Assembly (NCBI GenBank): GCA_963693365.1
Contig: CAVNZM010000003.1
Location: 12,187,651 to 12,251,650 of the forward strand
Source of the DNA: Amoebidium appalachense
Taxonomy: Eukaryota; Protista; Ichthyosporea
Direction of reading: 5' to 3'
DNA: 64,000 nucleotides
Notes under the pieces: generated by a model
What the model saw: only the letters and a program-made list of their open reading frames with translations
What the model was told of the DNA's origin: nothing
Databases searched by the model: none
Shown here: one piece after another, positions 58,801 through 61,800 of the stretch
Layout of the letters: each line of letters opens with the position of its first letter
Position numbering within the stretch: the first letter of the stretch is position 1
Position numbers and translations under genes: made by a program

Positions 58801-61800
58801 GTTTGCACGCACACAGGACCGCAAGGATCCGGTCAAATCCCGCCAGCCAGAACTGCCCTTCGATGGTGGGTATCCCCCTCTCCACCCCCCCCCCCCCCCC
58901 CCCCATTTTCTCTGCACACCCAACAGGTCTTAACCAGATCTGCACATCGTTAGTCACAATCTTCTCACATATATGAGAGAATGATCGTATTGGTACGATT
59001 TGTCTAATATCTGACGATTCTGCAGCATCCCTAAGACCCCCCCCCCCCTCCCCCCCTCCCCCTCCCCCCCCCCCCCCCCCACCTTCTCTCTCTCTCTCTC
59101 TCCCCTCTCTCCCTCTCTCTCTCTCCTCTCTCTCTCTCTCTCTCTCTCTCTCTCTCTCTCTCTCTCTCTCTCTCTCTCTCTCTCTCTCTCTCTCTCTCTT
59201 TCTTTTTCCTCCTTTTTTTTTTTTTTTTTTTTTTTTTTTTTTGGCGCCTGTTGTTTTGCTTGTCATTTGTTGTTCTGGTTGATTACCTGTAATCTTCGCT
59301 TATTTATGTGTGTGTGTGTGTGTGTGTGTGTGTGTATGTTGTGCGGGGTTGCACATACCGGTGTCTACTTTTCTTCTTACTGTTTTTCTCTCCACACACT
59401 TCATCTGTCCACTTCTGCATACCCCCTTTCATAGCTATAGACACACTTCACACATTGCGTTACGCGCACGCATGCACACACCGCTCTGTTGGCGACAGCT
59501 CCCTTGGAACCCATGCGGCATGTTACCCGCCGGCGTAACATAACTCGGACTATCGGTTTGGCTTTTTTCAAGCCCAAAGCAATGGGTGATACCATATTTC
59601 CGGCTGACATCCGGGGGCATAGCTTTCCGTTCGAAGACGATAAAGTTCCGCCCTAGTAAGCGTGTTACTACCCTGCGGCGTGGGTCAAATCTCATATTTT
59701 CCCCTCTGATTACGAATTCTGTGGCCTTCGGGACTTAATTCTTTTCAGCTGGTGTAGTATGTTAGCCAGGGAAGTATCGACTTAGGTATCGACGGGGGAG
59801 CTTCCTAGAAGCCCCGTCTCCTGAGTTCCTATCTATATTTTTCTTGCTTCTGCTTACTGCTGCAACTTTAACCCCCGGCCTTTCCCACTGCCCTTGCCTG
59901 CATAAGCAACCCTGCTCGTCTCTGATCAAGACGGGTGACCTACTCATGTTCAAGTGAAACAGTATCTGAGTTGGGTTTCGTTAACGAGGGGAATAGGTCG
60001 AAACTCGGGTACTGTGGATGACGTGGGCCCCCCCTGAGGATGGGCTCTGCTTATTATGCATACTCTTTATGTATGGCTTGCATTCTGCATCGTGTTATCC
60101 GTTTGTTCTTGTGTACTTCGTACTTTTTGACGCATTCAAAACCCCCCCCCCCCCCCCCAAAAAAAAAAAAAAAAAGAAAAAAAAGGAAAAGAAAAGAAAA
60201 GGCTACACACAAGCGTGCGCGTGCACACACACACACACACACACACACACACACACACACACACACACACACACACACACACACACACACACCACCACCA
60301 CCCGGGTACATAACCTACCCTGACCCTTTTAGGCTGCTTGCTTACGCTTGCAACTTCTTTTGGCTCCAAGGACCGTTACAAGAGACATCCATGCCTAAGC
60401 GTTCTTCCTTCTGTACCTTGCCCTTCTGGATTAACCCGGTTCGTGCTGTGGTGCTAGTATACCATTTTCCATCAGCAAAAGAGACCCCCCTCCCCTCCTC
60501 CTCCCCCTCCCCCCCCCCCCCCCCACGTTCGACGGGGGAGCTTCCTAGAAGCCCCGTCTCCTGAGTTCCTATCTATATTTTTCTTGCTTCTGCTTACTGC
60601 TGCAACTTTAACCCCCGGCCTTTCCCACTGCCCTTGCCTGCATAAGCAACCCTGCTCGTCTCTGATCAAGACGGGTGACCTACTCATGTTCAAGTGAAAC
60701 AGTATCTGAGTTGGGTTTCGTTAACGAGGGGAATAGGTCGAAACTCGGGTACTGTGGATGACGTGGGCCCCCCCTGAGGATGGGCTCTGCTTATTATGCA
60801 TACTCTTTATGTATGGCTTGCATTCTGCATCGTGTTATCCGTTTGTTCTTGTGTACTTCGTACTTTTTGACGCATTCAAAACCCCCTCCCACGTTCCCAC
60901 GCGCAGGTAGTAGGTGGGGGGGGGGGAGGGTGGGAGGGGGAGGACAACAATAAACTTTGGTGGAATGCTGCTTACCTATGTATGAATGTGTGTGCTGTGT
61001 ATGCAAGCCCTCATGTGTGCTGTGTGTGCACGTCTCCCTGTGTGTGTGGCGGGGACTGACTGTTCTTTGTGCAGCCAAGGAGGGTATTGGTGGCCGCATA
61101 GCGCCCAACTGGACACAGTGGATCAAGGACGAGATAGAGAAGGACACAACAAGAGACGAGGTGGGGGCATGCTGGCTTGTTGCTTGCACAAAAAGCACAT
61201 GATTAGACGTGCTGGCAAATGAACACACACACACACACACACACACACACGCACACGCACACGCACACGCACACACACACACACACACACACACACACAC
61301 ACATACACAATCATGTCCGCACACACAGGCATCACACAGGCACATCAAAGCTCACTACACAATTGTTAGAACATCCACCCGCACCCTCCCCCCCCCCCCC
61401 CTCCCGCCCCCCCCTCCCCCCCCCCCTCCCCGGGAGCGCCGGTTCTTTCACACACACACGCATACACGTGCACTCATGCTCAGACGCGTATACACGCTGG
61501 CACAGACAGCCACTACACAGGTGACAGAACAGTCCTTTCCCCCCCTCCACCCCCCTCATCCGCGCGCGCATACACCACACGCGCACACACACACACACAC
61601 ACACACACACACACACACACACACACACACACACACACACACACACACACACACACACACACACACACACACACACACACACCGCCCAAGTGTCCGAACA
61701 TTCCTCCCCCCCCCCGCCCCCTCCCACCACCACCACCCCTCCCTCCCTCCCTCCCTTTCCCTTAACACACGCGCGCACGCACACACTCTCATACACAAAC

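Follow-up and report, generated by a model that had tools for sequence, protein, structure and literature searches.

Hammerhead ribozymes of types I, II and III are built from three blocks in the circular orders CGS, GSC and SCG. In the parts of Eckert 2023 (PMC10085705) available to us, the known alignments have at most 1–2 nt between CUGAnGA and its stems, and block C is assumed to be uninterruptible; the portion of Perreault 2011 that was seen reports short core insertions only. Among retroelements, excerpts of PMC7761336 and bioRxiv 2026.07.22.740005 propose that hammerhead cleavage processes transcripts of other PLEs and of retrozymes to unit length, and the HHR of another PLE was found to be dispensable for insertion in vitro and to need protein to cleave (PMC11167929). 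The Naiad/Chlamys PLE clade is defined by an N-terminal GIY-YIG and by CxC and DKA motifs; in the sections of Craig 2021 (PMC8557442) consulted, most of its elements are given as lacking a canonical HHR, and cores fitting no descriptor were flagged there together with eight 'half cores' 35–50 nt apart.

We studied a 64,000-nt stretch of Amoebidium appalachense DNA (the window), and we consider it likely that the terminal repeats of a Naiad/Chlamys PLE and of its partner found there encode a hammerhead-type RNA in which CUGAnGA is split between A9 and G10.1, with self-cleavage predicted on the 3' side of GUU (59972) and a head-to-tail dimer as the most likely active form. The core motifs, the strand order, the element context, the recurrence and the distant covariation were observed. 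The elements that carry the motif are the following:

58881..60141, + strand: family B, a 5'-truncated stretch of the 3' region of the PLE; its end is the terminus common to A and B, at a (C)n tract
60529..60881, + strand: second B copy, core 60642-60794
61959..62239, + strand: third B copy, core 62001-62153
25502..30246, - strand: 5'-truncated Naiad/Chlamys-type PLE with partial pLTR 30186-30246, RT ORF 27623-29413 and B core 25588-25740
30835..32137, - strand: family A tandem array with a 452-bp period and three cores
19679..20268, - strand: family A full copy plus a partial upstream copy

The RT ORF (27623-29413, - strand) is a 100% match to residues 343-938 of the 938-aa EukProt protein P0001. 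This protein carries CxC and DKA motifs and an N-terminal GIY-YIG at residues 27-79 (PF01541, E=3.4e-4, 21.3 bits, just below the 22.6 cutoff), a part that is absent from the truncated copy of the PLE in the window. The marks of Naiad/Chlamys elements were all found, that is, GIY-YIG before the RT, CxC and DKA, (C)n or (CA)n targets and partial tandems; the A and B copies in the window end in (C)n tracts. Family B is the 3' end of the PLE, and a 61-nt B piece upstream of the ORF is a partial pLTR. Family A is a 452-bp non-coding tandem unit that shares its core and terminus with B. As in non-LTR retrozymes, A is a non-coding tandem repeat with a ribozyme motif per unit (three cores), but it does not have their type I hammerhead in a 150–300-bp unit. 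The 452-nt back-joint of family A is present in contigs, and tandem DNA predicts the same joint. No relative of the window RT was found in the viral contigs searched, and 14 other ORFs of the window gave no Pfam match.

Other features of these elements and of the window were recorded alongside. Between tandem A units, and nowhere else, there is a 53-nt extension (31687-31738 and 31235-31286, - strand) that resembles the PLE 'tail'. Upstream of the B core, the region 59560-59860 (+) contains further predicted GC-rich hairpins that are absent from A. Truncated or decayed A/B fragments lie on the - strand at 2949-3141, where CUGAnGA is mutated, 6854-6909 and 54431-54527. The window also holds a LINE-like RT (PF00078, E 1.8e-28) at 35944-37983 (-) with partial copies at 45283-46702 and 8282-8843, LTR-retrotransposon-like ORFs at 39198-43198 (+) encoding the zinc-binding and core domains of an integrase (PF17921, PF00665), and, at 10513-11427 (-), an ORF whose product has a CD225 (IFITM/dispanin) domain (E 2e-16).

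Next to the elements stands the RNA itself. Every motif that the original prediction had placed in family B was found exactly where it was said to be: stem II at 59937-42/59994-99, GAAA at 60000-03, GUU at 59970-72, stem I at 59973-75/60031-33 and CUGAGGA at 60034-40. To these we added three features that had gone unremarked, namely a CCC/GGG helix adjoining A9, a k-turn-consensus loop and a palindromic hairpin loop. The resulting map of the first B copy reads:

59902..60054, + strand: family B split hammerhead-like RNA, whole motif (motif positions, order scan, descriptor)
59902..59912, + strand: closing helices, 5' strands, separating A9 from G10.1; outer 59902-08, inner CCC 59910-12 (sequence, constrained fold)
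59914..59936, + strand: side hairpin; the loop carries a self-complementary hexamer, UGAUCA (59923-28), and is predicted to act as a kissing loop
59937..59942, + strand: stem II 5' strand from G10.1, the detached half of block C (A/B compensatory change, covarying relatives)
59943..59952, + strand: 5' strand of helix 'I' (the basal helix), partner 60019-60027; connects stems I and II at their distal ends
59953..59958, + strand: bulge strand of the k-turn-consensus loop, a 3-nt bulge (59953-55) followed by G, A, A, opposite 60016-60018 (A/B sequence against the definition in the part of PMC4316175 consulted)
59959..59975, + strand: block S, with stem III 5' strand 59959-71, U17 59972 and stem I 5' strand 59973-75
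59972/59973, + strand: predicted cut within block S
59976..59993, + strand: tip linker from stem I to stem II, with a 10-nt palindrome at 59978-87 (sequence)
59994..60015, + strand: block G, with stem II 3' strand, GAAA and stem III 3' strand
60031..60040, + strand: stem I 3' strand and CUGAGGA (first half of block C)
60042..60054, + strand: closing helices, 3' strands, at 60042-44 (GGG) and 60048-54

The window contains four full B cores (59902, 60642 and 62001 on the + strand, 25740 on the - strand) and four full A cores, all on the - strand (CUGAGGA at 31873, 31421, 30969 and 19813), in line with the claim that the PLE and its non-autonomous partner have the split core in common. With the final form of a descriptor that was revised three times after matches had been seen, these eight copies scored 55–58, and 100 shuffles of the window searched on both strands gave one match, scoring 27. 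An order-agnostic scan returned a-S-G-C as the best strand order in 8/8 copies: the chain runs through the G10.1 strand, helix I, the cut site, GAAA, helix I' and CUGAGGA, leaving the core after A9 and returning at G10.1 via the closing helix and the side hairpin. The A and B cores do not follow the circular block order of types I, II and III, as had been predicted; the order itself has a precedent, since S-G-C is that of type-SGC, with the basal helix corresponding to helix 'I' of that type (in the parts of PMC10085705 available). A scan of the window with Rfam produced 27 matches, none at gathering score and no ribozyme among them.

The hammerhead motifs CUGAnGA, GAAA and NUH are present in 9/9 sequences, that is, in A, B and seven relatives described below. 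So are C3, G8, G12, A15.1-U16.1, G10.1-C11.1 and H at position 17, in sequences that are otherwise little similar. Stems I, II and III with the G10.1-C11.1 and A15.1-U16.1 pairs, by which we tested for a hammerhead, were found, the contiguous stem III of L047 having only 2 bp. The cores of A and B are 81% identical over 179 nt and match otherwise only at the extreme 3' end, much as the original prediction had described their likeness; at this identity A and B are close relatives. Its claim of compensatory changes between them held for stem I, stem II, stem III and the basal helix, with one two-sided change each; the side hairpin stem and the closing stem do not differ between A and B. Because these four are the only two-sided changes, A vs B alone is thin covariation evidence, and the strong covariation for the split core comes from outside relatives only.

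Several further observations concern the families themselves. In contigs of this organism, U59941C and A59995G occur at similar depth; the two changes would compensate each other if carried by the same copies. Contigs of runs X1 and X2, covering window 59985-60061, show a further family of this organism in which stem III and the core are kept and the 3' strands of stem II, stem I and helix I are changed. In A as well as in B, the tip linker contains a perfect palindrome of 10 nt, different in sequence between the two, which may fold into a small hairpin or provide another contact between molecules. Cross-docking of A and B appears partly possible, with 5+2 bp for B base and A tip and 4+3 bp for A base and B tip, both rods being 25 bp long.

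We then turned to relatives among metagenomic loci, a set of 80 out of 495 confirmed loci fetched via RT alignment. The split layout occurs in 7/80 loci, always on the sense strand and with scores of 52–61; the antisense strands gave none, and 30 shuffles gave three matches with a maximum of 44. In six of these loci the motif lies downstream of the ORF and in L070 upstream, as expected for a pLTR. An N-terminal GIY-YIG-like motif was recognised in six of the seven, L026 giving no match. A quick RT tree of 78 rows, from which L010, L015 and L037 were dropped, distributes the seven over four separate RT lineages with 27–36% identity to the window RT; the 25 other rows on the side of the window are all without the motif, the window being its sole bearer there. 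The motif is absent from 73/80 loci, most of them short, and also from 18 of the 23 with more than 1200 nt after the RT match.

In the four loci that could be aligned, five of the six stem II pairs changed on both sides and 96.8% of 156 cells were paired, against 33–47% in slid controls, so that the stem II covariation expected once more families were aligned did appear. MAFFT was unsuccessful in aligning the nine divergent sequences, and covariation across lineages consequently rests on the anchored descriptor. A covariance model built from four close loci recovered its own members only, missing A, B, L047, L067 and L070, and two pattern scans yielded 13 loci with no convincing split form, three of which resemble ordinary type II. 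The GGG/CCC inner closing helix is flipped in the L016 clade. At L067:5152-5300 we found a minimal split form, whose closing helix has AA on both flanks and which has an extra rod arm and no side hairpin.

A by-eye reading of published consensi (PMC8557442, in part) took in 55/62 CTGATGA places, 25/25 CTGAGGA places and parts of other motifs, and missed motifs broken at line ends. Within that portion the split layout was recognised in at least 10 of 54 Naiad consensi, all from animals; named by file order, they are Bfor, Chem-3, Amil, Aacu (with two mismatches), Anas, Movir-2, Plae, Dst-4, Obim and Ovul. An intact type-CSG with helix I was seen in at least six consensi of the nematode region of Naiad, one of them with 1 nt after A9, and the split form was not seen by eye in the green-algal Chlamys passages of the same source. 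That most of the clade was reported there to have no canonical HHR agrees with the prediction that standard descriptors would miss this form.

According to the mechanism we propose, each RNA would very probably fold into a rod (helix I, bend, stem III) that carries the cut site and GAAA at its tip and CUGAGGA and the G10.1 strand at its base, with the closing helix holding the base. With only slightly less confidence, we expect tip and base to pair through stems I and II and so complete the active core, for which catalysis is predicted. In A and B, docking of tip and base between two copies, either neighbours on a tandem transcript or separate RNAs, is somewhat favoured and would be aided by the kissing loop and the k-turn bend. 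Cleavage would trim tandem or pLTR read-through transcripts to unit-length RNAs.

The folding results differ among sequences. A constrained fold gave both closing helices in A with P=1.00 and in B with 0.20; when the core strands were held unpaired, the closing pair adjoining A9 reached a probability of at least 0.92 in 7/9 sequences (B 0.20, L067 0.26). A simple shuffle test of the closing helix was significant in 1/9 (p 0.02–0.88), and without constraints the MFE structure of B has another base (z -1.21).

Three arguments drawn from sequence support a putative head-to-tail dimer: the loop hexamers, the phasing of the rods and the long forms that do not close. A palindrome of at least 6 nt occupies the side-hairpin loop in 6/8 hairpin-bearing sequences, compared with 274/2810 background loops, and it exists in five different versions (UGAUCA in A and B; GGUACC, UCCGGA, GGAUCC and GAGCUC in relatives). 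Per-loop shuffle p-values range from 0.001 to 0.2; the loops of L070 and L047 have no hexamer palindrome and L067 has no side hairpin. A loop palindrome was also seen by eye in 3/7 published split lineages in the consensi consulted. The rods (stem III plus helix I) measure 25, 25, 24, 14 and 12 bp in five families and are phased modulo 11 (R=0.90, p=0.02; p=0.002 with seven by-eye values added) in a post hoc test that depends on bulge counting. For L047 and the Acropora form, no monomer closure was obtained with the helices intact.

At the bend, A and B alone match by their letters the k-turn consensus of a 3-nt bulge, tandem G.A/A.G and a canonical helix, with bulge and third-pair letters that differ between the two. 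The GA loop was also compared with the SECIS consensus, a reading that was dropped: the ORF ends in TAG, P0001 is without Sec and there is no apical AA. The junction thus resembles the standard k-turn as defined in the sections of PMC4316175 seen, with its 3-nt bulge, G.A and A.G pairs and flanking canonical helix in A and B, whereas the relatives differ, with simple bulges or loops of another kind at this place.

The same split hammerhead could instead be active as a monomer, in which a bend of the rod, at the bulge or the k-turn, would bring the tip onto the base of the same molecule; this we judge unlikely without dismissing it. By a crude reach estimate monomer closure is possible in 6/9 cases; the short relatives with a stem III of 4–5 bp close, and so do A, and B with its internal loop open. 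K-turns often fold a helix back for tertiary contact (PMC4316175, part consulted) and type-SGC RNAs were cleaved during transcription (PMC10085705, likewise in part). However, the two arms of the k-turn differ in length (16 vs 9 bp), and in the folded turn the shorter one is therefore not long enough for contact with the far end of stem II. Moreover, the position of the bend varies while total rod length is quantised, and a monomer leaves the differing loop palindromes unexplained. The head-to-tail dimer can be set in a broader picture, which is plausible although we lean slightly against it: Naiad/Chlamys would carry non-circularly permuted hammerheads clade-wide, one branch having a four-strand split core that is an obligate head-to-tail homodimer through its kissing loop and phased helices, with cleavage sensing tandem or paired RNA, and the non-autonomous partner, whose rod also has 25 bp and whose stems are partly compatible, could dock on the RNA of the autonomous element.

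A structure derived from a hammerhead and retained without catalysis, as a protein-binding or dimerisation signal for the RT of the element, appears highly improbable. GUU is a weak hammerhead cleavage triplet, stem I of B has only 3 bp and many clade members are without the motif, all of which would suit such a role. So would the finding that the hammerhead of another PLE was dispensable in vitro and depended on protein for cleavage (PMC11167929). Nevertheless, it is the catalytic-core positions (C3, G8, G12, A15.1-U16.1, G10.1-C11.1, H17) that are kept in 9/9 sequences.

Marginally less probable still is that A and B are ordinary type-SGC ribozymes with a 2-nt insertion after A9 and the downstream GGCU strand as stem II. 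Such an intact stem can form in A (6 bp, -9.7 kcal/mol) and B (4 bp, -6.1 kcal/mol), and insertions of 1–2 nt are known (PMC10085705, in the parts available). It is wobble-rich, though, and weaker than the split stem II, which has -11 to -16 kcal/mol in 9/9 sequences (B -11.3, A -11.2). The A/B change in the 3' strand is tracked by the upstream strand and not by the downstream GGCU, the covarying strand lies upstream in 9/9, and the intact option is found in 0/7 relatives. The covarying upstream strand and the core motifs uphold the prediction of a hammerhead core with A9 unlinked from G10.1. Lastly, a chance co-occurrence of motifs in a repeat is scarcely credible: the motifs are short and the four-sequence covariance model missed A and B, but the shuffle and antisense controls and the covariation largely refute it.

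A split block C contradicts the assumption of an uninterruptible CUGAnGA behind the six-permutation scheme. The split form would explain the apparent lack of hammerheads in a large clade that dominates many invertebrate genomes, and it bears on the argument that hammerheads are dispensable passengers of PLEs. Non-circular permutations, so far from metatranscriptomes, are now found in eukaryotic chromosomes, with the split and CSG openings in one clade. A core that is dimer-gated or opened between A9 and G10.1 would offer a new handle for ribozyme engineering. A literature search covering few subscription journals returned no description of a split block C or of permuted hammerheads in Naiad/Chlamys, and apparently only the split of block C is new, S-G-C order and helix I being already known.

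Among the nearest described systems is type-SGC (HRIMA-1; Eckert 2023, PMC10085705, from the parts seen). As there, the order is S, G and then CUGAnGA, a linker joins the stem I and stem II strands, and stems I and II are bridged at their distal ends by a helix 'I' that connects to stem III. The linker has 18–22 nt in A and B vs about 3 nt in type-SGC, and the host here is a genomic retroelement and there a metatranscriptomic RNA. Block C, uninterrupted in type-SGC, is broken here by the closing helix and the side hairpin, and it is this that sets the split form apart from type-SGC members. Type-CSG, with two sequences in the same portion of that work, is another opening of the same block ring; unlike the split form, it has an intact block C, and its stem III and helix I are joined on one strand only. 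With the minimal type I hammerheads of PLEs and non-LTR retrozymes (excerpts of PMC7761336 and bioRxiv 2026.07.22.740005), the split form shares a terminal-repeat site, a tandem non-autonomous partner and a proposed dimeric cleavage. Those hammerheads have the canonical order and a weak or missing stem III, which is the stem swapped, whereas the split form has a strong stem III and would exchange stems I and II. The 'HHR_core' and 'HHR_half_core' annotations of Naiad in the sections of PMC8557442 consulted belong to the same clade and the same 3' UTR/pLTR position as the window motif. Several of these families show the exact split layout by eye; the annotations carried no proposed structure, in a clade given as without canonical HHRs, and here a structure is proposed.
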